A DNA stretch of 64,000 bases. Source: Nitrosopumilus sp. Its GTDB lineage: Archaea; Thermoproteota; Nitrososphaeria; Nitrososphaerales; Nitrosopumilaceae. Below the pieces are notes generated by a model that made no database searches, was not told the DNA's origin, and worked only from the letters and a program-made list of their open reading frames with translations. Of the stretch, positions 7,975 through 57,380 are shown one piece after another; the first letter of the stretch is position 1; every line of letters begins with the position of its first letter. Location of the stretch: contig NZ_JANQTA010000003.1 of assembly GCF_028278985.1 (NCBI RefSeq), forward strand, positions 19,295 to 83,294. Reading direction: 5' to 3'. Made by a program: the position numbers and the translations under genes.

Positions 7975-8095
7975 ACAAAGTATGAGTATGATATATTAAT
8001 ATATTAAGAAGTCCCAATTTTGGGAATTTTTGGATACTAGATGTATCTATTCAAAATTACATGTGGATTAATATTTCCCAATTATAGGAATAACA

Positions 8096-8311
8096 TTGAA
8101 GAATTCTTTTAATGTTAATTCGTATAGTCATTTTAAAACACTAGAATCAATTCAAGAAATAATCAAATGTCCAGAATGTAATTCAAATGATAATTTGTGT
8201 GATATTCACTCAGAACTTATCAAGACATACATTGTAGATGATGTCAAAGGTTGGCTGGATGAATTGAATCGTCACAGTAACCAAAATACAACAATAAAAA
8301 ATACAGTTTGA
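8096..8311 (+). CDS. Small hypothetical protein, possible Zn-binding
   Basis: CPEC...CDIH ligand pattern; TTG start. Confidence 0.55.
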   Translation: MKNSFNVNSYSHFKTLESIQEIIKCPECNSNDNLCDIHSELIKTYIVDDVKGWLDELNRHSNQNTTIKNTV

Positions 8312-8335
8312 AAAATTTATTAAAATTTTAAACAG

Positions 8336-8409
8336 CGGGTCTAGAGGGATTCGAACCCACGACAGCAGGATTAAGAGTCCTGTGCGCTACCTGGCTGCGC
8401 CATAGACCC
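8336..8409 (-). tRNA. tRNA-Lys(CTT)
   Basis: Reverse complement GGGTCTATGG...; anticodon arm CAGGA-CTCTTAA-TCCTG; T-loop TTCGAAT. Confidence 0.97.
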
Positions 8410-8468
8410 ACCAAAATAGATATGCATGAAGTTGTTATTAATCTTGAGATTTGAAAATAAATGAAAAT

Positions 8469-9071
8469 TTAGTTTTGAGCTTTTGCTTCAATTTCATTGT
8501 ACTTTTCTAAGATTGCTGTAAGTGCAGTTGAAACTGGAACATCGTTCATCTTTTTCTTTTCGGCTAGAAGTTTTTGGTATGCATCTAAGGTGATGTAAAC
8601 CGGAATTGAACCATTTCCTTCAAGTAAACCTCTAACGTTGTAAAGTGCAGTTTCCATTCCTTTTTCAGCAGACTTTGCAAATTTTGCTTTATCCATGATG
8701 GCTCCTAATGGACCAAATGGCATTTCATAATCTACTGACATGGTTACTCTTGTGAGGTTGTTACCTAGGGCTTTGAACTCATTGGTAATTTGCCATTTCT
8801 TGAATGGACCTTCGATTTGTTTTGCAGAAATTTTCTCATTTCTGACAAACTCGATTGTCTCACAATCCCACTCTAGACGTTTGCCGCTAAAGTCACCGAT
8901 AATTCTAAAGGTTGTACCTACACCCATTCCTTCCTTGATATCCATAGGAACGACTGTCATGCCTACTGCATCAGATTTAATCTGGTCAGAAACGTGTTCT
9001 GGTCTTGCAAAGTAGGTAAAAACATTCTCTACAGGTGTTTTGATATCGATTGATTTTGTAACGAGGGTCAA
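8469..9071 (-). CDS. SRPBCC/START (CoxG/cyclase-like) domain protein
   Basis: SIDIKTPVENVF; GVGTTF; QIEGPFKKW; TRVTMSVDYEMPFGPLG. Confidence 0.85.
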   Translation of the reverse strand: MTLVTKSIDIKTPVENVFTYFARPEHVSDQIKSDAVGMTVVPMDIKEGMGVGTTFRIIGDFSGKRLEWDCETIEFVRNEKISAKQIEGPFKKWQITNEFKALGNNLTRVTMSVDYEMPFGPLGAIMDKAKFAKSAEKGMETALYNVRGLLEGNGSIPVYITLDAYQKLLAEKKKMNDVPVSTALTAILEKYNEIEAKAQN

Positions 9072-9168
9072 CGATTGAGTTTCTTGCCAATAAGGATTTA
9101 AAGGTTTTGAAGATTTCCCAACGAAATTAAATTACAATATATTCGTCTGATATCCATAATAATCCATA

Positions 9169-33829: not shown

Positions 33830-36238
33830 TTGGAATACAAATTTTTATCAAAAGTAGAGACTTTAAAATTTCTAGAAAATCACATAAAAAAATCAAAAAT
33901 TGAAAAAATTTATGATTTTACAGTAAATGATTGGAAAGAAAATAAATCAAAAATAATCTCAGATATAAAAAATAAATTTAAAGCAAAAATTATTGTTCGT
34001 AGTTCTGCGGCTGGAGAGGATTCATTTGAAGAATCTAAAGCGGGGAATTATGATAGTGTTCTTAATGTAAATTCAAATTCTTCAACATCTATTCAAAAAG
34101 CAATTGATAAGGTAATTGCATCTTATGAAAATAAAAATAATGAAAATCTAAGAAACCAAATTTTTGTTCAAACTCAAAGCACAGAAATTATTACCAGTGG
34201 AGTTGTTTTGACTAGAGATCACAATAATGCATCACCATATTATGTGATTAATTTTGAAGATGGAAACAAAACAGATGGAGTTACTAAAGGAATAGCCAAT
34301 AATACAGTAAAGATTTTTAAAAAAATTGAGAGAGAAAACATTCCAAAAAAATGGAAAAAACTTATTTTAGCAATAATAGAGATAGAAAAAATTTTCAAAA
34401 TAGATTATTTAGATGTAGAATTTGGAATAAATAAAAAACAGGAAATAATAATATTTCAAGTAAGACCCATTACATCATTAGAAGAAAATAAAATAAAAAT
34501 AAACTATATACAAGTTGAAAAACTAATAGATTTCAATAAAAAAAAATTTTTGAAACAAAAACAATGTTTTGGTAAAAAAATTTTTTCAGATATGAGTGAC
34601 TGGAATCCAGCTGAAATTATTGGAAATGATCCTAATTTGCTAGATTACTCACTGTATGATTACCTGATAATGAATGATTCGTGGAGTAAAGGAAGAGAAA
34701 AAATTGGATATAAAAAACATGAAAAAAATTTGATGGTAAAATTTGGAAACAAACCATATGTAGATGTCAACAAAAGTTTCTATTCATTAACTCCAATCAA
34801 TTTTCAAAAAAAGATTTCAGAAAAATTAATAAATTTTTATTTAAAAAAATTAGAGAAAAATCCTCATTTACACGATAAAATAGAATTTGATATAGTGTTT
34901 TCATGTTATGATTTTTCTCTAAATGAAAGATTGAAAGAATTAAAAAAAGCGGGATTTTCACAAAATGAAACAGTTCTGATTAAAAAAAATCTACTGGATT
35001 TTACCAATGACATTATTAAAAATTTTAATAAAATATTGAAAGATTCAGAAAAATCATTATTGCATATGACAATTAATAGAAAAAAAATTAATGCACAAAT
35101 TAACAAAAAATCTAATTACAAGAAATTATTGGATAATGCGTTTATTTTATTAGAAGATTGTAAAAAATATGGAATTATTCCTTTTTCATCAATGGCTAGA
35201 ATATCATTTATCGCATCTGCAATGTTAAACAGCTTATCAAGGGAAGGCATTGTTAAATCAGAAATTATTGATGATGTGATGAATTCAATAAATACACCAT
35301 TATCCAGATTCAGAGAAGATTATCAAAAATTATCTATGAAAAAAATTACAAAATCTCAATTTTTAGAAGAATATGGTCATCTAAGGCCTGGAACTTATGA
35401 TATATCTGCATTAAGATATGATCATGATGATAGATTTTTACAAGATTTTGAATTTAATATTAAGAATAAAAAATCATTAAAAAAATCAAATTTAAAAATT
35501 AATAATATTTTAAAAAAACATAAAATTTTGTTAGATAGTAATGAGTTTCTCAGATTTATTGAAAAAGCGATTCAAGGTAGAGAAGAATTAAAATTTGAAT
35601 TTACCAAGAACCTTTCAGATGCATTAGAATTAATCAACAAAGCAGGAAACGAATTAGGATTTTCAAGAGATGATTTAAAAGAACTGGACATTCTAAGGAT
35701 AAAAAATACATACAAAAAATTGAAAAAATCAGATTTGCAAATGATCTGGAAAAAAGAAATTTTGAAACAAGTGAAAATAAAAACTAAAAATGAAAGCATA
35801 TTACTCCCACCAATAATAGTATCCGAAAAAGATTTTGGAATAATTACTCAGTATACAGTAAAACCAAATTTCATTACACAAAACCAGATTACATCTAAAA
35901 TTATTGATCTAAAAGATCTAAACAATATTTCAGATTTAAAAAATAAAATAATTTTAATAGAAAATGCAGACCCTGGATACGATTGGATTTTTACAAAAAA
36001 CCCATCAGGATTAATTACTAAATATGGAGGAGTTGCATCACATATGTCAATTCGCTGTGCGGAAATTGCATTACCAGCAGCAATTGGATGTGGAGAGCTA
36101 TTATTTGAGCAAATTAAATCAGCATCAAAAATTCATCTAGACTGTAAAAATAATTTAATATCTATCTTAGAGCATAACACTAATGATGAATCTGTTGAAA
36201 TCAGAAAAGCCTTGAAGTCTTTGGGATACATAAAATGA
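33830..36238 (+). CDS. L-glutamine kinase (Cj1418-like PEP-utiliser/PPDK-fold phosphohistidine kinase)
   Basis: VRSS..GED, QVRP ATP-grasp; DWNPAEIIG, HDKIEF, GHLRPGTY; ADPGYD...GGVASHMSIR with His738. Confidence 0.88.
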   Translation: MEYKFLSKVETLKFLENHIKKSKIEKIYDFTVNDWKENKSKIISDIKNKFKAKIIVRSSAAGEDSFEESKAGNYDSVLNVNSNSSTSIQKAIDKVIASYENKNNENLRNQIFVQTQSTEIITSGVVLTRDHNNASPYYVINFEDGNKTDGVTKGIANNTVKIFKKIERENIPKKWKKLILAIIEIEKIFKIDYLDVEFGINKKQEIIIFQVRPITSLEENKIKINYIQVEKLIDFNKKKFLKQKQCFGKKIFSDMSDWNPAEIIGNDPNLLDYSLYDYLIMNDSWSKGREKIGYKKHEKNLMVKFGNKPYVDVNKSFYSLTPINFQKKISEKLINFYLKKLEKNPHLHDKIEFDIVFSCYDFSLNERLKELKKAGFSQNETVLIKKNLLDFTNDIIKNFNKILKDSEKSLLHMTINRKKINAQINKKSNYKKLLDNAFILLEDCKKYGIIPFSSMARISFIASAMLNSLSREGIVKSEIIDDVMNSINTPLSRFREDYQKLSMKKITKSQFLEEYGHLRPGTYDISALRYDHDDRFLQDFEFNIKNKKSLKKSNLKINNILKKHKILLDSNEFLRFIEKAIQGREELKFEFTKNLSDALELINKAGNELGFSRDDLKELDILRIKNTYKKLKKSDLQMIWKKEILKQVKIKTKNESILLPPIIVSEKDFGIITQYTVKPNFITQNQITSKIIDLKDLNNISDLKNKIILIENADPGYDWIFTKNPSGLITKYGGVASHMSIRCAEIALPAAIGCGELLFEQIKSASKIHLDCKNNLISILEHNTNDESVEIRKALKSLGYIK

Positions 36239-36903
36239 ATTATGAAAATGTGGAAAATAAAATAATGAAAATAGGTATTTCTTCTAGAATTGTTTCTGCT
36301 CCCAATTATGATGAAAAAAGAGACGCTATTAGTCATGAATGGCCTAAATTATTAGAGAAATTAGGATTAATTCCCATCATTATCCCAAATGTTTTAGAAA
36401 ATGTGAAAGAATTTGTTGAGAATGCTCAGATAGATGGACTAATTCTATCAGGAGGAGATAATATTGGAGAATTTATTCAACGTGATAATACTGAAAAAAA
36501 TCTTTTAGAATTTGGAATAAAGAAAGAAATTCCTATTATTGGAGTGTGTAGAGGAATGCAAATAATAAATAATTATTTTGGAGGTACTGAAATTAAAAAT
36601 AATAATAATGACCATGTAAATAAATCTCATTTCATAAAAATTAAACAAAATGAATTTGTTTCACTATTGAATAAAACTGAAACTAAAGTAAATTCATTTC
36701 ATAATAACATTATTACTAAAGAGCATATAGGAAATGGATTACAAATAGTAGCATTAGATAAAAATGATGAAACAATTGAGGCATTTAGTCATTCAAAATT
36801 TCCAATCATAGGAGTAATGTGGCATCCCGAAAGAGAACAAAACGAAGATAATTTAAAAATAATTAAAACATTTTTTGAAAATAAAAAATTTTGGTCGAAT
36901 TAA
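36235..36903 (+). CDS. Class I glutamine amidotransferase-fold hydrolase (Cj1417-like gamma-glutamyl-CDP-amidate hydrolase)
   Basis: LILSGGD, GVCRGMQ (Cys nucleophile), VNSFH, WHPE; Y-E-K-R-D-A N-terminal segment; gene context. Confidence 0.85.
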   Translation: MNYENVENKIMKIGISSRIVSAPNYDEKRDAISHEWPKLLEKLGLIPIIIPNVLENVKEFVENAQIDGLILSGGDNIGEFIQRDNTEKNLLEFGIKKEIPIIGVCRGMQIINNYFGGTEIKNNNNDHVNKSHFIKIKQNEFVSLLNKTETKVNSFHNNIITKEHIGNGLQIVALDKNDETIEAFSHSKFPIIGVMWHPEREQNEDNLKIIKTFFENKKFWSN

Positions 36904-36904
36904 T

Positions 36905-37693
36905 TTGAATGTGATAATTTTAGGAGCAGGAGAAGGTAAACGATTACGTCCATTAACAGAAAATCGCCCAAAATGTTTGATCGAATTATTTGGAAAATCA
37001 TTATTACAACATCAGATTGAGATTTTTGAAGAAAATGGAATAGAAGATATTTCTATTGTTACAGGATATAAATCAGATTTGATAAATTTTCCTAATGTAA
37101 ATTATTTTAAAAATGAAAATTTTGATACTACAAATATGGTAGAAACTTTATTTTGTGCTGAAAAAAAAATCTCAAATTCAACTATAGTTTCTTACGGAGA
37201 TATCATATTTGAAAGCAAAGTTCTAAAAAAATTAATCGACTCAGAAGAAAATATTTCTGTAGTTATAGATAAAAATTGGAGGAAGTATTGGGAAATGAGA
37301 TTTGAAAATCCATTAGATGATGCAGAAAATTTAATTCTAGATAGTGAAGGATATATCAAAAAAATAGGTCAGAAAGTATCGGATTATAAGGAAATTGAAG
37401 GTCAGTATATTGGCCTGATGAAATTCCAAAATAAAGGGATAGAATATATGAAAAAATACTATCACGAGGCTAAAAATCAGTCTAAAAATGGAAAAAATAT
37501 CTTAAATCCCTCTTTAGAATTTAAGAAATCATACATGACAGATTTCATTCAAGGAATGATTAATAATAAATTTCAGATTAAGTCTGTTCCAATTTTTAAT
37601 GGATGGTTAGAAGTAGACACAGTAGATGATTATAATCTGTATAATAAATTAAGAAAAGAACAAAAATTAGATGAATTGATTTCGATTAATTAG
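36905..37693 (+). CDS. LicC-type cytidylyltransferase (Cj1416-like CTP:phosphoglutamine cytidylyltransferase)
   Basis: ILGAGEGKRL, TNMVETLFCA, SYGDI, W..RFENPLDDAE, GQYIGL, WLEVD; likely TTG start 36905. Confidence 0.85.
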   Translation: MNVIILGAGEGKRLRPLTENRPKCLIELFGKSLLQHQIEIFEENGIEDISIVTGYKSDLINFPNVNYFKNENFDTTNMVETLFCAEKKISNSTIVSYGDIIFESKVLKKLIDSEENISVVIDKNWRKYWEMRFENPLDDAENLILDSEGYIKKIGQKVSDYKEIEGQYIGLMKFQNKGIEYMKKYYHEAKNQSKNGKNILNPSLEFKKSYMTDFIQGMINNKFQIKSVPIFNGWLEVDTVDDYNLYNKLRKEQKLDELISIN

Positions 37694-37742: not shown

Positions 37743-38888
37743 ATGGGAAAAGAGGATTATAATATTATTTTAATTAATTTAGATGGATTAAGAAGAGACA
37801 GAGTAGAACTTTGCTCTACATTAAATAACCTAAAAGAGGAAAATTGTTTTTTTTCAAATATGTTTACAGTGGCACCTTATACATTTGCATCATTACATGC
37901 AATTTTTTCAGGAATGTATCCATCAAGAAATGGAATGAATGCATATTATAATATTTTTAAATTTAAAAAAGATGAGATTACTACATTACCACAATTACTA
38001 CAAAATGAAGGTTACTACACATGTTGCGACATAATAAACAAAGTAGTAATTCCAAATCAAGGATTTGATGAATTAAATATATTCGATGAAGAAACAGTTG
38101 ACTTTAAGCAACGTCATAGAGACTTAATAAAAAAATTAGCAAATAAAGATAAATTCTTTTTATTTTTACATTTCACTGAAACTCATAAACATTTAGTTAG
38201 AGAAATTGTGAAAAAATACAAACAAGAATCCAATGATGATGAGTTTTTTAATTTGAAAGATGAAAACATTGAAAGATATAATTCCTATTTACCCTCATGT
38301 GATTCCTATGTTTCAGCAATTCTAGATATTTTGAAGGAATCTAAAATTGAACATAAGACAATCTTAATTTTCTTTTCTGATCATGGAACAAGTATTGGAG
38401 AGAGAAAAGGTGAAAAATTTTATGGTGTATTTACCTATGATTATACGATTAACGTTTTCTGCATTATTAAAACTCCTGAAAAATTAAACAAAAAAATCGA
38501 AGGCCAATGCCAAACTATCGATCTTTATCCAACAATTTCAGACATGTTGGGAATAAAATTAGAAGAAAACTCGATGATTCAAGGAAAATCATTGTTTAAA
38601 ATGATTGAAAATTTGGAGAATGATGAAAGAGAAGTATTTGTTGAAACTGGTGGTCTTTATGGCCCTTGGCCTTCGTCAAAAAAACACAATGTCTTTTGTC
38701 TTAGAAGTAAAATGAAAAAAATAATTTATAATGAAACACCTAATTCTTGGGAATTTTATGATTTGAAAAAAGATCCCAATGAATTACAAAATATTTATGA
38801 TGAAGAAAATAATGATGTTTTAGAATACAAAAAAAAATTAATGAAAAAATTTGAAGATAATAATATTGATTTAGGACTAAAAATTTAA
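37743..38888 (+). CDS. Sulfatase-fold/alkaline-phosphatase-superfamily hydrolase or transferase (Thr nucleophile)
   Basis: NLDGLR, APYTFAS (no CxPxR), SDHG, DLYPT, YDLKKDPNE. Confidence 0.8.
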   Translation: MGKEDYNIILINLDGLRRDRVELCSTLNNLKEENCFFSNMFTVAPYTFASLHAIFSGMYPSRNGMNAYYNIFKFKKDEITTLPQLLQNEGYYTCCDIINKVVIPNQGFDELNIFDEETVDFKQRHRDLIKKLANKDKFFLFLHFTETHKHLVREIVKKYKQESNDDEFFNLKDENIERYNSYLPSCDSYVSAILDILKESKIEHKTILIFFSDHGTSIGERKGEKFYGVFTYDYTINVFCIIKTPEKLNKKIEGQCQTIDLYPTISDMLGIKLEENSMIQGKSLFKMIENLENDEREVFVETGGLYGPWPSSKKHNVFCLRSKMKKIIYNETPNSWEFYDLKKDPNELQNIYDEENNDVLEYKKKLMKKFEDNNIDLGLKI

Positions 38889-41583: not shown

Positions 41584-42351
41584 ATGAAATCAGTTATTCT
41601 TGCAGGTGGATTAGGAACAAGAATTAGTGAGGAGACACATCTAAAGCCAAAACCCATGATTGAGATTGGAGGAATGCCTATGTTGTGGCATATTATGAAA
41701 ACTTACTCTGCATATGGAATTAATGATTTTGTAATTTGTTGCGGCTATAAGGGCTACATAATTAAAGAGTATTTTGCAAATTATTTTTTACATAGATCTG
41801 ATGTTACAATAGATTTAAAAAATAATCAAATGGATGTTCACCACAAATTTGCTGAACCATGGACAATAACACTTGTTGATACTGGAATTGAAACAATGAC
41901 AGGAGGAAGACTAAAGAAAGTAAAAGAATACGTTGAACAAGAAACTTTTTGTTTTACTTATGGGGATGGATTAAGTAATATTGATATAAAAAAATTAATT
42001 GAATTTCATAAAACAAAATCAAAAATTAGTACTGTTACTGCAGTACAGCCACCTGGAAGATTTGGAATGCTTGAAATAAAAAATGATGAAATTCAAAAGT
42101 TTGTAGAAAAACCAGCTGGGGATGGAGGATGGATTAATGGGGGATTTTTCGTGTTAGAACCAAATGTATTTGATTATATCAAGGATGAAAATACAATATG
42201 GGAAAGAGAGCCATTAGAACAATTAGCTAAGGAAAATCAGTTAAGCGCCTACAAACACTATGATTTTTGGCAACCACTTGATACTTTGAGAGATAAAAAT
42301 ATCTTAGATGATTTATGGGATTCAGGAAATGCTCCTTGGAAAGTTTGGTAA
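41584..42351 (+). CDS. rfbF: Glucose-1-phosphate cytidylyltransferase
   Basis: LAGGLGTRISEETHLKPKPM, VDTG..TMTGGRL, TYGDG, WINGGFF, FWQPLDTLRDK. Confidence 0.95.
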   Translation: MKSVILAGGLGTRISEETHLKPKPMIEIGGMPMLWHIMKTYSAYGINDFVICCGYKGYIIKEYFANYFLHRSDVTIDLKNNQMDVHHKFAEPWTITLVDTGIETMTGGRLKKVKEYVEQETFCFTYGDGLSNIDIKKLIEFHKTKSKISTVTAVQPPGRFGMLEIKNDEIQKFVEKPAGDGGWINGGFFVLEPNVFDYIKDENTIWEREPLEQLAKENQLSAYKHYDFWQPLDTLRDKNILDDLWDSGNAPWKVW

Positions 42352-43433
42352 TGGATAATAATTTTTGGAAGGATAAAAGAGTTCTAATTACTGGTCATAC
42401 TGGATTTAAGGGTAGTTGGCTTACAATAATTTTAAAAAAATTTGGAGCTAATGTAATTGGTTTTTCTAAAGATATTCCCACTAAACCAAGTTTATTTGAA
42501 ATTGCAGAAGTCAAAAATAATATTCAAAATATAATAGGAAATGTAAATAATCGTGACCAGATAGAGCAAGCATTTAATGAATTTAAACCAGAAATTGTTT
42601 TTCATATGGCTGCACAATCAATTGTTAGAGAATCTTACAAAAAACCATTAGAAACATTTTCGACAAACGTGTTAGGAACTGCAAATGTTTTAGAAGCTGT
42701 TAGAAATTCAAATTATGTAAAAGTTGTAATCGTCGTAACTAGTGACAAATCATACAAAGTAAAAAAAGATCATTCAAAATATTCTGAAGATGATCCTATG
42801 GGAGGATATGATCCTTACAGTAGTAGTAAAGGATGTGCAGAATTATTAACTTCTTCATATAGAAATTCATTTTTTAATCCCAGTAAATTTGATGAACACA
42901 ATGTTGCACTAGCATCTGTTAGAGCAGGAAATGTGGTAGGTGGAGGGGATTGGGGTATGGATAGATTACTACCAGACATAATTAGGGGAATTTTAAATAA
43001 ATCTAAAGTAGCAATACGAAATCCTGGTTCAACAAGACCTTGGCAATTTGTTTTGGATCCATTATTTGGATATTTGAGATTAGCTGAAAAAATGTGGCAG
43101 AGCAAAGGAGAATTTTCAGAAGGATGGAATTTTGGGCCAACTTCTGAAGAGGAACATACTGTCAAATGGATTACTGAGAATATTAAAAAACAATTTAAAG
43201 ATAAAATAAATTTTGAAATAAATTCATCAAATCAGCCTCATGAAGAAAAATATCTCAGATTAGATTGTTCAAAAGCTGAAAAAGAGCTATTATGGACAAG
43301 TAAAATGAAATTAGAAACCACGTTAAAATGGACGTTAAATTGGTACGAAGAATATATGAAAAATAGCGATATGAGAGAATTTACTGAGAGGCAGATAGAC
43401 GAATTTATTTTAATGGAAAATGAACTCACATAA
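42351..43433 (+). CDS. rfbG: CDP-glucose 4,6-dehydratase
   Basis: TGHTGFKGSW, HMAAQ, VTSDK, YSSSK, RAGNVVGGGDW, RPWQ; ATG 42351 coupled to the rfbF stop. Confidence 0.95.
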   Translation: MDNNFWKDKRVLITGHTGFKGSWLTIILKKFGANVIGFSKDIPTKPSLFEIAEVKNNIQNIIGNVNNRDQIEQAFNEFKPEIVFHMAAQSIVRESYKKPLETFSTNVLGTANVLEAVRNSNYVKVVIVVTSDKSYKVKKDHSKYSEDDPMGGYDPYSSSKGCAELLTSSYRNSFFNPSKFDEHNVALASVRAGNVVGGGDWGMDRLLPDIIRGILNKSKVAIRNPGSTRPWQFVLDPLFGYLRLAEKMWQSKGEFSEGWNFGPTSEEEHTVKWITENIKKQFKDKINFEINSSNQPHEEKYLRLDCSKAEKELLWTSKMKLETTLKWTLNWYEEYMKNSDMREFTERQIDEFILMENELT

Positions 43434-44652
43434 ATGTAGATTTTGTAACTCATCCATCAATAATGTATTTGTGGATCTGGGGATTTCACCATTATCAAAT
43501 TCATTTTTAAAAGAAAATGATTTGTCTGAGCCTGAAAAAAAATTCCCTCTTAAAGTTCTAGTTTGTCAAAAATGCTTCCTAGTACAAATTCCTGAATTTG
43601 AAACACCAGATAATATTTTTAGTGAATATGCATATTTTTCATCATATTCTAAAAATTGGTTAAATCATATACAGAATTATGTTGAAATGATTTCAAAGAA
43701 AATTAATTTAAATCAAAATAGTCTAGTTGTGGAGTTAGCAAGTAATGATGGCTACTTATTACAATTTTTTAAAGATAAAAAAATTCCAGTGTTAGGAATT
43801 GAACCAGCTGCAAATGTTGCAAAAGTTGCACAACAGAAAGGAATTGAAACAATGGTTAATTTTTTTAGTGAAAAACTTTCAGATGGACTTGTAAAAAAAA
43901 GTATTAAGGCAGATCTCATAGTTGGAAATAATGTCTTGGCTCATGTACCAAACATTAATGATTTTATAAGAGGAATGAAAAAAATTTTAAAATCTGATGG
44001 AATGATAAATATGGAATTTCCACATGTATTAGAATTAATCAAAAATAATCAATTTGATACAATTTATCATGAACACTTTTCTTATTTGTCATTAAATACA
44101 GTAAAAATGATATTTGAATTTCATAATATGACAATTTTTGACGTGGAGGAAATATCTACTCATGGAGGTTCATTACGGATATATGTAAAACATAAAGAAA
44201 ATGAAAATATTCCAATTAAAAATTCAGTAGAACTTCTTTTAAAGAAAGAAGATGAATTTGGATTGTTAGACATATCTACATATGAGAATTTTTCTCAGAA
44301 AACAAATCATATTAAAAGAAAATTAATAGATTTTTTTAATGAAGCAAAACAAAAAGGAGATAAAATTGTATGTTATGGTGCTGCAGCAAAAGGAAACACA
44401 CTACTAAATTTTTGTAAAATTGGTAAAGAGCATATAGAATATGTAGTAGATAATAATCCCTATAAGCAAGGATTGTATCTTCCAGGAACTCATCTAGAAA
44501 TTAAGGATCCCATAGAAATAAAAAATTCTAAACCAAAGTATATTGTTATTTTACCATGGAATATCAAAGATGAGATAATGAACGATATTTCATTCATACA
44601 TGAATGGGGAGGTAAATTTGTAATTCCAATTCCAGAGGTAGAAATCATATGA
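43420..44652 (+). CDS. NDP-hexose C-methyltransferase (zinc-ribbon plus SAM domain plus C-terminal domain)
   Basis: CRFC...CQKC, YAYFSS, ELASNDG, YHEH, YGAAAKG. Confidence 0.9.
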   Translation: MNSHKCRFCNSSINNVFVDLGISPLSNSFLKENDLSEPEKKFPLKVLVCQKCFLVQIPEFETPDNIFSEYAYFSSYSKNWLNHIQNYVEMISKKINLNQNSLVVELASNDGYLLQFFKDKKIPVLGIEPAANVAKVAQQKGIETMVNFFSEKLSDGLVKKSIKADLIVGNNVLAHVPNINDFIRGMKKILKSDGMINMEFPHVLELIKNNQFDTIYHEHFSYLSLNTVKMIFEFHNMTIFDVEEISTHGGSLRIYVKHKENENIPIKNSVELLLKKEDEFGLLDISTYENFSQKTNHIKRKLIDFFNEAKQKGDKIVCYGAAAKGNTLLNFCKIGKEHIEYVVDNNPYKQGLYLPGTHLEIKDPIEIKNSKPKYIVILPWNIKDEIMNDISFIHEWGGKFVIPIPEVEII

Positions 44653-45167
44653 ATTTTGTAAAAACAGAACTGCCTGGTGCGTATATAATAGAAATTGAGA
44701 AGATTTTAGATGATAGAGGATTTTTTGCAAGAACATTGGATTTGGAAAAAAATGAGGAATTAGGCATTGAATCAAACATAGTTCAATCTAGTATTTCGTA
44801 TAATGTCAAAAAAGGAACATTAAGAGGAATGCATTTTCAGATTAAACCATTTGAAGAGGCAAAATTCGTTAGGTGTACAAAAGGTAAAATTTTTGATGTT
44901 ATCATAGATCTTAGAGAGAATTCAAGTACATTTCAAAAATGGATTTCAGTAGAATTATCTGATGAGAATCATAGAATTTTGTATGTTCCAAAAGGATTTG
45001 CTCATGGTTTTCAGACATTAGTGGATAATACGGAGGTATTTTATGAAATCACACAAGTGTTTAATCCAGAATATGCTAGAGGCTTAAGATATGATAATAA
45101 AGAAATTGGAATTGAATGGCCATTGAATGTTTCAGTTATTTCAGAAAAAGATGCAAACTATGATTGA
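44649..45167 (+). CDS. rfbC: NDP-4-keto-6-deoxyhexose 3,5-epimerase (RmlC family)
   Basis: DDRGFF, TLRGMHFQ, YVPKGFAHGFQTL, ISEKD. Confidence 0.92.
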   Translation: MNFVKTELPGAYIIEIEKILDDRGFFARTLDLEKNEELGIESNIVQSSISYNVKKGTLRGMHFQIKPFEEAKFVRCTKGKIFDVIIDLRENSSTFQKWISVELSDENHRILYVPKGFAHGFQTLVDNTEVFYEITQVFNPEYARGLRYDNKEIGIEWPLNVSVISEKDANYD

Positions 45168-45211
45168 ATTTTTAATTCCCAAGAACGTTTAATTATAAAT
45201 ACACTAAAATT

Positions 45212-45949
45212 TTGAGTGTGACCAACAAAGATTTCGAAAAAAGAAATCAGAAAAAAATTAAATCAATGGTTGATGATAAAGAAATTGAGAAAATTTCAAG
45301 AAAATGGTTCAATAGAGTTTTTAGTTATGAATATTCATATCATTTTTCCTGGTTAGGAAGGCCTATTATTCAATTTCCACAGGATATGATTGCTATTCAG
45401 GAAATTATTTGGAAAACTAAACCAGACATAATAATTGAAACTGGAATTGCCCATGGGGGGTCATTGATTTTTTCAGCTTCAATTCTAGAATTAATTGGTA
45501 AAGGAAAGGTAATTGGGATAGACATTGACATAAGAAAACATAATAGAAAAGAAATAGAAAAACATCCTCTTAAAAAAAGAATTACAATGTTAGAAGGTTC
45601 TTCATTAGATGGAGAAATTTTGAAACAAGTGAAAAAACTTGTCAAAAATAAGAAAAAAATAGTTGTGTTTTTAGACTCATATCACACTCATGAACATGTA
45701 CTAAGAGAACTCGAAATGTATTCTCCATTAGTTAAAAACGGAAGTTATGTTGTAGTTTTTGATACAATGGTAGAATTTATGCCTAAAAACTCATTTCCTA
45801 ACAGACCATGGGATAAAGGAAATAATCCACATACGGCCGTAATGGATTTCCTGAAAAAAAATAAGCGTTTCAAAATAGATAAAGAAATTGAGAATAAACT
45901 ATTGATAACATCATGTCCAGATGGATTCTTAAAATGTATAAAAAGTTGA
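45212..45949 (+). CDS. CmcI (cephalosporin hydroxylase)/rhamnosyl O-methyltransferase family
   Basis: WLGRPIIQFPQD, IIETGIAHGGS, LDSYHTHEHV. Confidence 0.88.
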   Translation: MSVTNKDFEKRNQKKIKSMVDDKEIEKISRKWFNRVFSYEYSYHFSWLGRPIIQFPQDMIAIQEIIWKTKPDIIIETGIAHGGSLIFSASILELIGKGKVIGIDIDIRKHNRKEIEKHPLKKRITMLEGSSLDGEILKQVKKLVKNKKKIVVFLDSYHTHEHVLRELEMYSPLVKNGSYVVVFDTMVEFMPKNSFPNRPWDKGNNPHTAVMDFLKKNKRFKIDKEIENKLLITSCPDGFLKCIKS

Positions 45950-45996
45950 ATAGATACAAAAATTGTGAAATAGTAATGTATGTGGAGATTTAAAAA

Positions 45997-46809
45997 ATGA
46001 ATTTCTCAATTATTGGTCCCAATAGTTTTATTGGAACACATATGGCAAGTTATCTTAGAGATCAGAATATTGAATACGAGTTTATAGATCCTAATGACGA
46101 GAAAATTTTTCAGAAAAAATTAGGACATGTAATTTTTGCCATAGGTCTTACTGGAGATTTTAGAAATAGACCTTTTGACACTGTAGAATCTCATGTATGT
46201 GTTTTAAAAAAAATTTTAGAAAAATGTAAATTTGATTCATTTTTATATTTATCATCAACTCGAATTTATTTAAATTCAGATTCCACAATTGAATCAAAAC
46301 CCATTGTAGTAAACCCTCATAATTTAGATGATTTATACAATATTTCTAAAATAATGGGAGAGTCATTATGCTTAGCATCAAATTCAAGAAATATCAAAGT
46401 TGTAAGACTTTCAAATGTGATAGGAAAAAAGAATAGTCAAAATGATTTTTTATCTTCAATCATACATGATGCGGTTATAAATAAAAAAATAATTCTTCAC
46501 ACCACTCCAGAAAGTGAAAAAGATTATCTCTATATCGATGATGTTGTTCAAATTCTAGAAAAAATTGCAATTCAAGGTAAAGAAAGATTATACAATGTTG
46601 CCTACGGGGAAAATACCAAAGTTTCTGAAATAAGTACCAAAATTCAAAAAATCACAAACTGTGAACTAGACTATGACGCTAATGCAGTAAATTACTCATT
46701 TCCAAGAATAAACATTAAGAGAATTAAGGATGAATTTGATTTTAATCCATCTCCATTTTTAGATAAATTAGATGAGTTAATTAATTATGAAATAAAAAAT
46801 AATAACTAA
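45997..46809 (+). CDS. NAD-dependent epimerase/4-ketoreductase (extended SDR)
   Basis: GPNSFIG, LSSTRIY, YNISK, RLSNV, KDY. Confidence 0.82.
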   Translation: MNFSIIGPNSFIGTHMASYLRDQNIEYEFIDPNDEKIFQKKLGHVIFAIGLTGDFRNRPFDTVESHVCVLKKILEKCKFDSFLYLSSTRIYLNSDSTIESKPIVVNPHNLDDLYNISKIMGESLCLASNSRNIKVVRLSNVIGKKNSQNDFLSSIIHDAVINKKIILHTTPESEKDYLYIDDVVQILEKIAIQGKERLYNVAYGENTKVSEISTKIQKITNCELDYDANAVNYSFPRINIKRIKDEFDFNPSPFLDKLDELINYEIKNNN

Positions 46810-51385: not shown

Positions 51386-52264
51386 ATGAATAAAGAAATT
51401 TGGCCAAATTTTTTCATTGTTGGAGCGATGAGAGCAGGAACAACATCATTATATGAATATTTGAAAAAATCTAAATTTGTATATCTGCCATCAATTAAAG
51501 AACCAAATTATTTTACATCAGCAGTTGATCCAAAACAATTACTTACAAAACCAATAAAGGATGAAAAAAAGTATCTGGAACTTTTTAAAAATGTAAAAAA
51601 TGAGAAGGTCATAGGTGATTCAAGTCCTACTTATTTGTGGGATCCTAAATCAGCTGAAATGATTTATAAAAAAATTCCAAATGCCAAAATAATTATAATT
51701 TTAAGAAATCCAATTGAAAGGGCATTTTCACATTATCTAATGCTATTTGGAAGAGGAATGACAAAATTATCATTTGAGCAAGTAATTAAGGAATCCCTAA
51801 TGGTTTCAGGCGACAATTTTGAAGGTCGTGTTATTAGTGGGGGATTTTATTTCAAACAAATTAAACGATATCTAGATACTTTTCCAAAAAATCAAAATAA
51901 AATAATAATTTTTGAAGAATTTGCTAACAATACAAAAAAATCTGTTCAAGATGTTCTAAATTTTTTAGAGATAGATGATAGTCCACATGAATCAGTAAAT
52001 ACCATTTACAATCAATATACAGAACCTAGAGGAGGAATTTCTTCATCAATCATGAGAAGCAATAAAATTAAAAAATTTGGAAAAAAAATATTACCATCAA
52101 GTTTAGGTCAATCAATGATGAATGATGTATTAGGAAAAAAAGTTGAAAAACCAAAATTATCTGAAAAATTACGCACGATCCTTGAAGATATCTATAGAGA
52201 AGAAATTATTGAAATTGAAAAAATTTTAGATATTGATGTACAATGGTTAAAAAAGAAAGCATGA
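51386..52264 (+). CDS. PAPS-dependent sulfotransferase
   Basis: PNFFIVGAMRAGTTSL (5'-PSB), KEPNYF, LRNPIERAFS (3'-PB). Confidence 0.92.
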   Translation: MNKEIWPNFFIVGAMRAGTTSLYEYLKKSKFVYLPSIKEPNYFTSAVDPKQLLTKPIKDEKKYLELFKNVKNEKVIGDSSPTYLWDPKSAEMIYKKIPNAKIIIILRNPIERAFSHYLMLFGRGMTKLSFEQVIKESLMVSGDNFEGRVISGGFYFKQIKRYLDTFPKNQNKIIIFEEFANNTKKSVQDVLNFLEIDDSPHESVNTIYNQYTEPRGGISSSIMRSNKIKKFGKKILPSSLGQSMMNDVLGKKVEKPKLSEKLRTILEDIYREEIIEIEKILDIDVQWLKKKA

Positions 52265-55961: not shown

Positions 55962-57380
55962 CTAAATATATCCTAATTTTTTTAATTCTTTTTCAATTAA
56001 AGCATCTTCATCCTCATTTACATCATCAGTTAATTCACGTGAAAAACTAAAATCTAGATCATTTTTAATTTTTTTTAAATGATCTTCCATTTCTAAAACT
56101 AAGTCTTGATTATCATTAGCAATATTATTTTCTTCAAATGGATCATTTTTAAGATCATATAGATTAACGTTTTTTGTTGATTCACTTCTATTTCGAAAAT
56201 ATTTGTAATTTGAAGTACGAATACCAATCGTATTTGCAGTCATAGATTTGGGTGAATTAGCAGCACTTTCAATCATTACTGGAAGTTCATCTTCTTTATC
56301 ACCTTTAATTAGTGAATATAGACTTCTTCCTCTAGCATCATTTAGAGAATTAACGCCTATAATCTCAAGGATTGTTGGAAAAATATCAATACTTCTAACT
56401 TGTTGATCGAGAATCTTATACTCACTAATTCCATATCCAGAAAATATTAGTGGTACACAAAATCGTTCATCAAAAACATCCAAAGTAGATTCTACAGAAT
56501 TTTTCATCAATCTTTCTTTATATGGACCCAAATTTTGTAAGTGAATTTTTTCTGCTTCCTCATGTCTTTGTTGTTTTATTTGTTTTCGTTTTCTATTTGA
56601 ATATGCTTTAGAAAGCATAGATCGAATAGGGGAAAATGATTTAGGAAGTTTTGAAGTTATTTTATGAGTTGATTCAAAATAAATTTTTTTGTACTGCCTA
56701 ACATTATTTCTATATTCTTCAATTTCTGGAGTGTAAACACCCACTTCAGAACCATGATCAGCTGTTAAAACAAAAATTGTGTTGTCAAGATTTATTTTTT
56801 TAAGAATTTTCCCAATCCAAACATCCATTGCTGAAACCATTCTTTCATATTGATTAGCACCAAATTTTTGATTTTGAAATTTTTTTGGTTCTGAATCTAG
56901 TTGAAATGTGGCACTTCCATGGATATCTAACAAATGAACATAATAAAACCAAGGTTCTGACAAGTTGGTTTGTAATTTCTTAATTATTTTTTCTCCTAAT
57001 CCATCGTATAATGTTGATGATGAATCATAAGTTTCATAATTTTCTTCAAAAACTTTACTTAATCCCATGTATGAGATCAATTCTGGAGTTATTGCATAAG
57101 TGGTATATCCATGTTCACGGAGAAAATCAGCATAATTAGAAATTTTTAGATTTAGTTTGAAGTGATTTTCGGTCTCTATAACTGATTCAAATGGATATTT
57201 TGAAGTAAAAATACTAGAGACCGATGGACAGGTTACAGGTGCTGAAGGAATTGTTTGAGAAAAATATGCACTATTTTTAATTATGAAATCGAGATTTGGC
57301 GTAATGGAAGTTTTATTTTTTCCATAACATTTGTCTGCTCTAAATGAATCAATTAAGAGAAAGAAAATATTTGGTTTCAA
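55962..57380 (-). CDS. Sulfatase-fold/alkaline-phosphatase-superfamily protein (Thr at the nucleophile position)
   Basis: LIDSFRAD, APVTCPSV, TADHG, DIFPT, YDLKNDPFE; C-terminal ELKKLGYI. Confidence 0.82.
   Translation of the reverse strand: MKPNIFFLLIDSFRADKCYGKNKTSITPNLDFIIKNSAYFSQTIPSAPVTCPSVSSIFTSKYPFESVIETENHFKLNLKISNYADFLREHGYTTYAITPELISYMGLSKVFEENYETYDSSSTLYDGLGEKIIKKLQTNLSEPWFYYVHLLDIHGSATFQLDSEPKKFQNQKFGANQYERMVSAMDVWIGKILKKINLDNTIFVLTADHGSEVGVYTPEIEEYRNNVRQYKKIYFESTHKITSKLPKSFSPIRSMLSKAYSNRKRKQIKQQRHEEAEKIHLQNLGPYKERLMKNSVESTLDVFDERFCVPLIFSGYGISEYKILDQQVRSIDIFPTILEIIGVNSLNDARGRSLYSLIKGDKEDELPVMIESAANSPKSMTANTIGIRTSNYKYFRNRSESTKNVNLYDLKNDPFEENNIANDNQDLVLEMEDHLKKIKNDLDFSFSRELTDDVNEDEDALIEKELKKLGYI

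Follow-up and report, generated by a model that had tools for sequence, protein, structure and literature searches.

A Thr-type sulfatase-fold gene follows a predicted phosphoramidate donor triad

We analyzed a stretch of 64,000 nucleotides from a Nitrosopumilus sp. contig (hereafter, the window), which comprises a large glycan-biosynthesis island, focusing on P0001, a sulfatase-fold protein of the alkaline phosphatase (AP) superfamily with a predicted Thr nucleophile (37743..38888, + strand; an open reading frame (ORF) of 381 aa), here considered a candidate phosphoramidyl transferase. Upstream of P0001 and on the same strand lie three overlapping or near-abutting genes of a predicted donor-making triad. 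The first encodes a Cj1418-like L-glutamine kinase of 802 aa, combining a PPDK_N ATP-grasp domain with a His domain of phosphoenolpyruvate (PEP) utilizers (33830..36238, +; NF004508, 843 bits; PF01326, PF00391) and ending in ...LKSLGYIK. The second product is a Cj1417-like hydrolase of the glutamine amidotransferase (GATase) fold (36235..36903, +), the best NCBIfam match of which, at 4.7e-36 and below the cut-off, is the gamma-glutamyl-CDP-amidate hydrolase NF045546, and the third is a Cj1416-like cytidylyltransferase of the LicC/PntC type (36875..37693, +; PF00483/PF12804), with LicC (1jyk) and PntC (6pd1) as the nearest structures. P0001 starts 49 nt past the end of the cytidylyltransferase gene, in the order kinase-GATase-nucleoside triphosphate (NTP) transferase-P0001; an earlier note on this DNA had likewise put it immediately after the triad.

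Sequence searches of the PDB yielded no Campylobacter structures of the triad enzymes, so that the orthology of the triad to Cj1416-1418 rests on NCBIfam and domain architecture. In Campylobacter, CDP-phosphoramidate 3'-phosphate is the joint product of Cj1418, Cj1416, Cj1417 and a further kinase, Cj1415 (PMC11800397), and the phosphoramidate transferases Cj1421/Cj1422 have been assigned by knockouts only (PMC11800397, PMC3907429); PntC produces phosphonates activated with cytidine monophosphate (CMP) (PMC6697681). The three proteins encoded upstream of P0001 would make cytidine diphosphoramidate (CDP-amidate) by the successive action of the Gln kinase, the cytidylyltransferase and the gamma-glutamyl hydrolase.

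Active site, topology and fold of P0001

P0001 matches the Pfam family Sulfatase (PF00884, 1.8e-29) and the C-terminal subdomain SGSH_C (PF16347), and its residues 9-68 additionally match the nucleotide pyrophosphatase/phosphodiesterase (NPP) family Phosphodiest (PF01663; 37.5 bits, above the cut-off). In phmmer comparisons with solved structures, Thr47 (codon 37881..37883, +), located in the segment APYTFASL (37872-37895, +), aligned to the formylglycine-forming Ser/Cys of the S1 sulfatases 9s03, 5g2v and 9hh2/9hh3, as well as to the catalytic Thr in the PTKTFPNH motif of ENPP3, the latter alignment spanning only the DG(L)R and Thr motifs. Leu51 of P0001 occupies the position of the Arg in C/S-x-P-x-R, and the formylglycine motif is therefore absent. 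The predicted metal ligands are Asp14 (in LINLDGLR; codon 37782..37784, +), which is invariant and aligns with the Asp of the ENPP3 DG(F)R motif, and Asp213-His214 (in SDHG; codons 38379..38384, +). Across 32 homologs with 59-72% identity, D14, T47, H143, H148 and D213-H214-G215 are all invariant. Among 106 full-length representatives from the 150 nearest 50%-identity clusters of P0001, position 47 is occupied by Thr in 94, Ser in 5, Ala in 1 and a gap in 6, but in none by Cys, whereas D14 is kept in 95, H148 in 94, and D213 and H214 in 102 each. Thr at this position is thus a family trait rather than a chance substitution, and the C/S-x-P-x-R motif is missing throughout the family neighborhood.

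No transmembrane segment, anchor or signal peptide was detected in P0001, the maximum 19-residue Kyte-Doolittle mean being 1.08, and in an AlphaFold2 model (pLDDT 86, pTM 0.90; alignment of 32 sequences), the first beta strand, which bears D14, begins already at residue 7. Sequence and model alike support a soluble, cytoplasmic protein. Altogether, these observations bear out what the earlier note had claimed about the active site, namely, that a Thr-containing segment replaces the formylglycine motif while the metal ligands are retained, as well as its proposal of a cytoplasmic location.

These features make it highly unlikely that P0001 is a conventional sulfatase with the island's sulfated glycans as substrates. 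Such a role would agree with the Pfam and NCBIfam sulfatase matches, the S1-like fold and the presence of a sulfotransferase in the island, but not with the loss of the formylglycine motif, a nucleophile position that is Cys in none of the 106 relatives, or the missing signal peptide; furthermore, in one pairwise alignment, with 5g2v, the sulfate-binding His of the GKWH motif is opposite Val102. We rejected this assignment on the ground that the motif is lacking family-wide.

A Foldseek search of the PDB with the P0001 model retrieved S1 sulfatases as all 50 of the 50 best matches (E about 1e-22, TMq 0.7-0.8), among them choline sulfatase, sulfamidase and gut Bacteroides sulfatases; neither LtaS nor EptA was among these top 50. 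The NCBIfam matches to LtaS/EptA-type families are weak (E 1e-5 to 1e-2). P0001 thus combines a sulfatase fold with catalytic motifs that, near the N-terminus, resemble those of NPPs, and it is not of the LtaS/EptA type. The suggestion of an LtaS/EptA-like Thr enzyme, made in the earlier note, stands with respect to the conserved Thr47 nucleophile, whereas membership in that group is ruled out by the architecture, which lacks transmembrane segments, and by the nearest fold.

The same comparisons raise the possibility that P0001 is a hydrolase, either NPP-like, cleaving CDP-amidate or a by-product (pCp or pyrophosphate (PPi)), or akin to phosphonate monoester hydrolases (PMH), trimming esters of phosphorus-linked groups (hereafter, P-X) from the glycan. 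The NPP-like N-terminal motifs (the PF01663 match and the ENPP3 alignment via DG(L)R and (Y)TF), the fact that all the nearest solved folds are those of hydrolases and a weak NCBIfam match to the phosphoric/sulfuric ester hydrolase PehA are compatible with this activity. Nevertheless, an operon that spends ATP and CTP on making a donor would gain nothing from also encoding its hydrolysis, scavenging esterases are usually secreted whereas P0001 is cytoplasmic, and the fusions to NTP transferase, kinase and methyltransferase domains described below suit a pathway step better than clean-up. We consider a hydrolytic role improbable.

Linkage of P0001 homologs to donor triads

Linkage to triads in other genomes had been set beforehand as the test on which the proposed role of P0001 would hinge, and such linkage was found in all the kinase-bearing genomes of the 401-genome order sample, on metagenome contigs and on a Woesearchaeota chromosome. 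The kinase is present in 5/151 genomes of the family and in 7/401 genomes of the order, and in 7/7 of the latter, a P0001 homolog resides at most 4 kb from it, mostly directly after the kinase-GATase-NTP transferase genes. In four genomes (G096, G082, G014 and G132; loci L006-L009), the P0001 homolog is the next gene after this trio; in G313, the block GATase-NTP transferase-P0001 homolog is intact and the kinase is relocated; and in G294, the homolog is convergent, 3.6 kb off. The four-gene order also occurs on contigs of a marine population represented by P0045, which is abundant (359 indexed blocks of the collection), and on the Woesearchaeota chromosome (L043), where the P0001 homolog shows 45% identity. 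In a closed 1.76-Mb genome (L003), the homolog is also near the triad, though in convergent orientation, and the fourth position belongs to a long Thr-type paralog. The genomes counted here are related and do not represent independent events, but they span three genera and include a different phylum.

In one locus of the P0045 population (L024), two short Thr-type paralogs from different clades (919-2037, 8001-9155) and one long paralog surround a single triad, an arrangement that recalls the two site-specific Campylobacter transferases.

Paralogs in methylphosphonate clusters

The P0001 family is not confined to triads. The 401-genome order sample contains 20 genes of this family, of which 7 are at triads, 11 at phosphonate clusters and 2 at neither, so that 18/20 have, no more than a few kb away, both an NTP transferase of the LicC/PntC type and an enzyme forming a P-N or P-C bond. 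All 11 phosphonate loci encode PEP mutase (Ppm), a split phosphonopyruvate decarboxylase (PpdAB) and an NTP transferase 31-33% identical to that in the window, and most also carry genes for an Fe-alcohol dehydrogenase and the methylphosphonate (MPn) synthase MpnS (689 bits to PDB 6b9s). The Ppm-linked copies of the P0001 family form one clade (100/97 support). If the two NTP transferases act as predicted, one would yield CMP-O-P(O)(O-)-CH3 and the other CMP-O-P(O)(O-)-NH2, isosteres with CH3 versus NH2 as the sole difference. The methylphosphonate of N. maritimus occurs in esterified form, which calls for a transferase, and within the conserved MPn core, only the two Thr-type proteins are available for that role, a point against a purely hydrolytic family. 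Metcalf reportedly noted, in 2012, that genes for sulfatase and nucleotidyltransferase are part of the MPn cluster. Our literature search found no described function for such "sulfatases" of phosphonate or phosphoramidate clusters.

Natural fusions of P0001-type domains

We searched for fusions of the P0001-type domain among 74 representative clusters (E<=1e-30) and identified three kinds of partner. In P0129 (558 aa), encoded on a 7.2-kb JGI metagenome contig (L021), the P0001-type domain is joined to a domain resembling adenosine 5'-phosphosulfate (APS) kinase, and the gene is convergent with those for a GATase-NTP-transferase fusion (470 aa) and a Cj1418-like kinase; this locus thus combines all four Campylobacter donor activities and a P0001-type domain in three genes. 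P0141 and P0143 are fused to an NTP transferase, and the P0141 gene is located directly upstream of a phosphonate-binding ATP-binding cassette (ABC) transporter inside a glycan cluster (L023:10001-14451), an arrangement suggesting that phosphonate from outside may be salvaged to decorate glycans. The third partner, in P0126, P0163 and P0169, is a class I S-adenosylmethionine-dependent methyltransferase. The contigs of P0125 and P0128 are too short for their gene context to be read. The activities of the fusion partners, that is, activation, 3'-phosphorylation and O-methylation, are the steps just before or after the proposed transfer. The fusions and the paralogs in the methylphosphonate clusters independently support a role for this family on CMP-activated P-X groups, and it is quite likely that P0001 acts on a CMP-activated P-X compound or on a product thereof.

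P0001 might instead transfer a different group, namely, the entire N-phospho-glutamine unit from CDP-L-glutamine or a phosphonate acquired from outside. Relatives of P0001 are found beside the phosphonate-binding transporter (L023) and in glycan clusters with neither a triad nor Ppm within 10 kb (L022; also L010 and L020), which implies that the donor range of the family is wider than the P-N and P-C compounds made in situ. However, the only P-donor module of the window is a complete triad that includes the GATase-type hydrolase, and the Campylobacter counterpart of this enzyme yields CDP-amidate (PMC11800397). No PEP mutase was found among the ORFs annotated at ~23-57 kb of the window, the rest of the window and of the genome not having been searched. 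For the protein in the window, we regard such an alternative substrate as distinctly improbable.

Other candidates in the island

Three more proteins encoded in the island could carry out the transfer. P0121 (55962..57380, - strand; PF00884, 1.2e-29) is a longer Thr-type sulfatase-fold protein of 472 aa, with APVTCPSV in place of APYTFASL and the tail ...LKKLGYI, which makes it a co-candidate. P0123 (38885..40135, -), convergent with P0001 and a possible rival or partner, is an SGNH-fold protein anchored in the membrane at its N-terminus (transmembrane residues 10-28; AlphaFold2 pLDDT 93, with SGNH-fold matches); it carries the invariant residues GDS (S112), G143-N144 and H391 but has no family name. 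A sulfotransferase-fold protein (51386..52264, +; PF00685/PF13469) would be a rival if the donor is a 3'-phosphorylated compound resembling 3'-phosphoadenosine 5'-phosphosulfate (PAPS).

If one of these proteins transfers P-NH2, P0001 would be accessory or parallel to it, serving a second acceptor site, scaffolding or editing, an explanation that we consider unlikely, though the most plausible of the alternatives. P0121-type genes adjoin triads in seven loci (L003, L006, L007, L008, L033, L112, L113) and nearly all MPn clusters, and P0121 shares a C-terminal motif with the kinase (see below); however, in the window, P0121 is 17 kb away, and the 18 kb of the G132 triad locus (L009) contain no such gene. 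Homologs of P0123 (39-52% identity) flank the triads of 8 loci from DPANN (Woesearchaeota), Methanosarcinales and Omnitrophota that lack a close P0001 homolog, two of which (L036, L051) contain a distant, 24%-identical sulfatase-fold gene. Nonetheless, P0123 was not found in the 150 other genomes of the family, including four 99%-complete ones with a triad and a P0001 homolog, and MPn clusters have no SGNH gene; moreover, serine hydrolases are usually inactivated by phosphoryl-type adducts rather than turning them over. Its absence from the 150 genomes led us to reject P0123 as a universal partner within Nitrosopumilaceae, and its occurrence in other phyla to retain it as a rival. Sulfotransferase-fold genes, along with APS-kinase-like genes, follow the triad in planctomycete and Ekhidna loci (L057:13848-15206, L064:14354-15268), suggesting a PAPS-like route of phosphoramidate transfer in some bacteria, but sulfotransferases are found in these islands whether or not a triad is present. 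Of the fusion proteins that we examined, those with NTP-transferase, APS-kinase-like and methyltransferase partners all belonged to the short family. The contention of the earlier note that P0001 is the best candidate for the P-NH2 transferase of the island is not supported in that form: triad linkage, fusions and the methylphosphonate paralogs speak for P0001 as a candidate, but the present data do not separate it from P0121, which is equally linked to triads, or from P0123.

The motif shared by P0121 and the kinase, a C-terminal L..LGY[ILVMF], ends only these two of the 3,727 ORFs of the 1.69-Mb genome. The two tails (36185-36238 and 55962-56012) consist of an acidic stretch followed by E-x-L-K/R-K/S-L-G-Y-I/L/V. 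In related loci, 28/431 ORFs have this ending, all of them encoding Gln kinases, long Thr-type proteins or several PEP mutases of MPn clusters (L003, L006-L009, L011, L012, L016-L019, L024, L112, L113, L115-L117). L..LGY also closes the AP domain in 45/150 more distant relatives, including fusions with tetratricopeptide repeats, and is lacking in the short P0001 family. Speculatively, the tail could serve as a docking peptide by which the enzyme that opens either pathway is held to AP-family proteins.

A cassette in the window encoding CDP-glucose, C-methyltransferase, 3,5-epimerase and CmcI functions (41584-46809) is 45-67% identical to the post-triad cassette of the bacterium Cohnella yongneupensis (L071). 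The deoxysugar may be the acceptor, or else the modules may have been co-transferred.

Many Lachnospiraceae and Clostridia loci (L054, L059, L061-L063, L065, L068, L069, L073-L076 and others) encode a Cj1418-like kinase of ~1,010 aa with no recognizable GATase or NTP transferase nearby, indicating that the kinase family has other uses.

The assembly originates from a coral metagenome, and homologs are labeled Thaumarchaeota or Marine Group I. As for the occurrence of the locus in sequencing runs, it is contained as a whole in one coral-metagenome DNA run only and partially in three runs (share 0.22) of unknown kind; none of the locus-holding runs was identified as RNA in this search, which covered runs of any kind and was not directed at RNA.

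A putative cytoplasmic P-X transferase

How could P0001 work? The enzyme would be metal-dependent, with D14, D213 and H214 as ligands that activate Thr47, which would then attack the amidate phosphorus of CDP-amidate or of its 3'-phospho form. The departure of CMP or pCp would leave a covalent Thr-O-P(O)(O-)NH2 intermediate, which a sugar hydroxyl, borne by either a nucleotide-sugar or a lipid-linked glycan from the island, would resolve in the cytoplasm. The sister paralogs in the methylphosphonate clusters would do likewise with the isosteric CMP-methylphosphonate. Precedents for both halves of such a mechanism are available: EptA/MCR-1 and LtaS for transfer, and the NPPs for attack on nucleotide pyrophosphates. 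We infer the donor, the covalent intermediate, transfer as opposed to hydrolysis, and the acceptor from the conserved residues, gene linkage, paralogy and fusions, and we give this reading, the most likely one, in which Thr47 takes P-NH2 from a CMP-activated donor and passes it on in ping-pong fashion, about an even chance of being correct. P0001 would best be described as a candidate transferase that is soluble and cytoplasmic, has a sulfatase fold and a Thr nucleophile, and would draw on nucleotide-activated P-N or P-C donors.

Several observations weigh against this assignment, in addition to the hydrolase folds that are nearest to P0001. The triad-linked copies of the family do not form one clade but fall into two or three, on an unresolved backbone. 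P0121 is linked to triads in the same way as P0001 and, besides, has the LGY tail in common with the kinase. All sources name the members of the family just "sulfatase" or "hypothetical", the ESM Atlas labels being "sulfatase family protein" only. The island contains no Cj1415-type kinase, and the only APS kinase of the genome is encoded on another contig. Most triad loci outside Nitrosopumilaceae have no close P0001 homolog: only L039, L043 and L047 of 80 triad loci encode one with at least 35% identity, 8/80 carry the SGNH protein instead, and about 14/80 harbor an APS-kinase-like gene, sometimes with a sulfotransferase. This scarcity implies that the P0001 family is not the universal P-N transferase. 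It seems that there are several ways to finish the pathway in nature; outside Nitrosopumilaceae and a small number of DPANN lineages, the short Thr-type family is not a constant partner of the triad.

A broader proposal, which we advance tentatively and hold to be possible rather than probable, is that the short and long Thr-type proteins together constitute a generic machinery by which archaeal glycan islands carry out P-X tailoring in the cytoplasm. This machinery would convert CDP-amidate or CMP-methylphosphonate into P-NH2 or P-CH3 esters on surface glycans via phospho-Thr and would be tied by the LGY tails to the Gln kinase or PEP mutase. If so, the Thr-type proteins would be the enzyme class that places methylphosphonate, the precursor of aerobic ocean methane, in marine polysaccharide, as well as a P-N transferase unrelated to that of Campylobacter.

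The implications concern two attachment steps that remain unsolved, namely, that of the O-methyl-phosphoramidate precursor to glycans, which in Campylobacter is known from knockouts only, and the esterification of methylphosphonate to polysaccharide in marine ammonia-oxidizing archaea. Methylphosphonate esterified in this way has been proposed to give rise both to dissolved organic matter rich in phosphonates and to the methane of oxic seawater. For both steps, the comparative evidence points to a single family of enzymes that are small, soluble and easy to express; as the predicted catalytic residue is an obvious target for mutation and the donor can be produced with enzymes, both attachment questions become directly testable. 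If the proposed activity is real, the Thr-nucleophile transferases of the AP superfamily would extend from membrane-bound enzymes with lipid donors to cytoplasmic enzymes with nucleotide donors. Many database "sulfatases" of the P0001 type, moreover, cannot be sulfatases.

Comparison with known systems

The closest structural relatives of P0001 are the S1 sulfatases and PMH (6g5z choline sulfatase, 4mhx sulfamidase, BT sulfatases 7p24/5g2v and PMH 4upk), with which it shares the two-subdomain fold, including SGSH_C, and the positions of the metal-ligand Asp and Asp-His. S1 sulfatases, however, use formylglycine where P0001 has Thr and no C/S-x-P-x-R, and their sulfate-binding K-x-H motif is apparently not kept; P0001 is also shorter (381 aa), soluble and cytoplasmic, and belongs to a biosynthetic operon. 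The likeness to the NPPs (ENPP1/3) consists in the Thr nucleophile in P-x-T-F-x-x-x, the Asp of (I/L)DG(L/F)R and SDHG, but it covers only the N-terminal third of P0001, the remainder being sulfatase-like. NPPs attack nucleotide pyrophosphate bonds; they are secreted and hydrolytic and pass through a nucleotidyl-Thr, while attack at the distal phosphorus would be required for the reaction proposed for P0001.

EptA/MCR-1, LtaS and the NPPs, as Thr-nucleophile members of the superfamily, form covalent phospho-Thr intermediates, and LtaS, EptA, OpgB and BcsG pass the covalent phospho-substituent on to a glycan or lipid hydroxyl. With LtaS, EptA (MCR-1), OpgB and BcsG, P0001 has in common the superfamily, the Pfam family and the Thr nucleophile, and they are our working model for the mechanism. 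These enzymes, however, possess N-terminal multiple transmembrane segments and an extracytoplasmic catalytic domain and employ lipid donors, in contrast to P0001, with no transmembrane segment and a donor proposed to be nucleotide-activated.

The O-methyl phosphoramidate (MeOPN) system of C. jejuni corresponds to the Cj1418/1417/1416-like triad upstream of P0001; in addition, the P0001 relative P0129 carries a Cj1415-like APS-kinase domain, and the methyltransferase fusions recall the O-methylation step. The two systems differ in that Cj1415 is present there, with no equivalent in the island, and in that here the host is an archaeon and the candidate transferase belongs to the AP superfamily. 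Finally, in the Nitrosopumilus MPn cluster (Ppm, Ppd, Fe-alcohol dehydrogenase, MpnS, nucleotidyltransferase and "sulfatases"), paralogs of three proteins hold equivalent places: P0001 (35-44% identity), P0121 and the NTP transferase (31-33%). The donor module of that cluster makes a C-P group where the triad described here would make P-N, and the role of the "sulfatases" there is, likewise, a predicted one.

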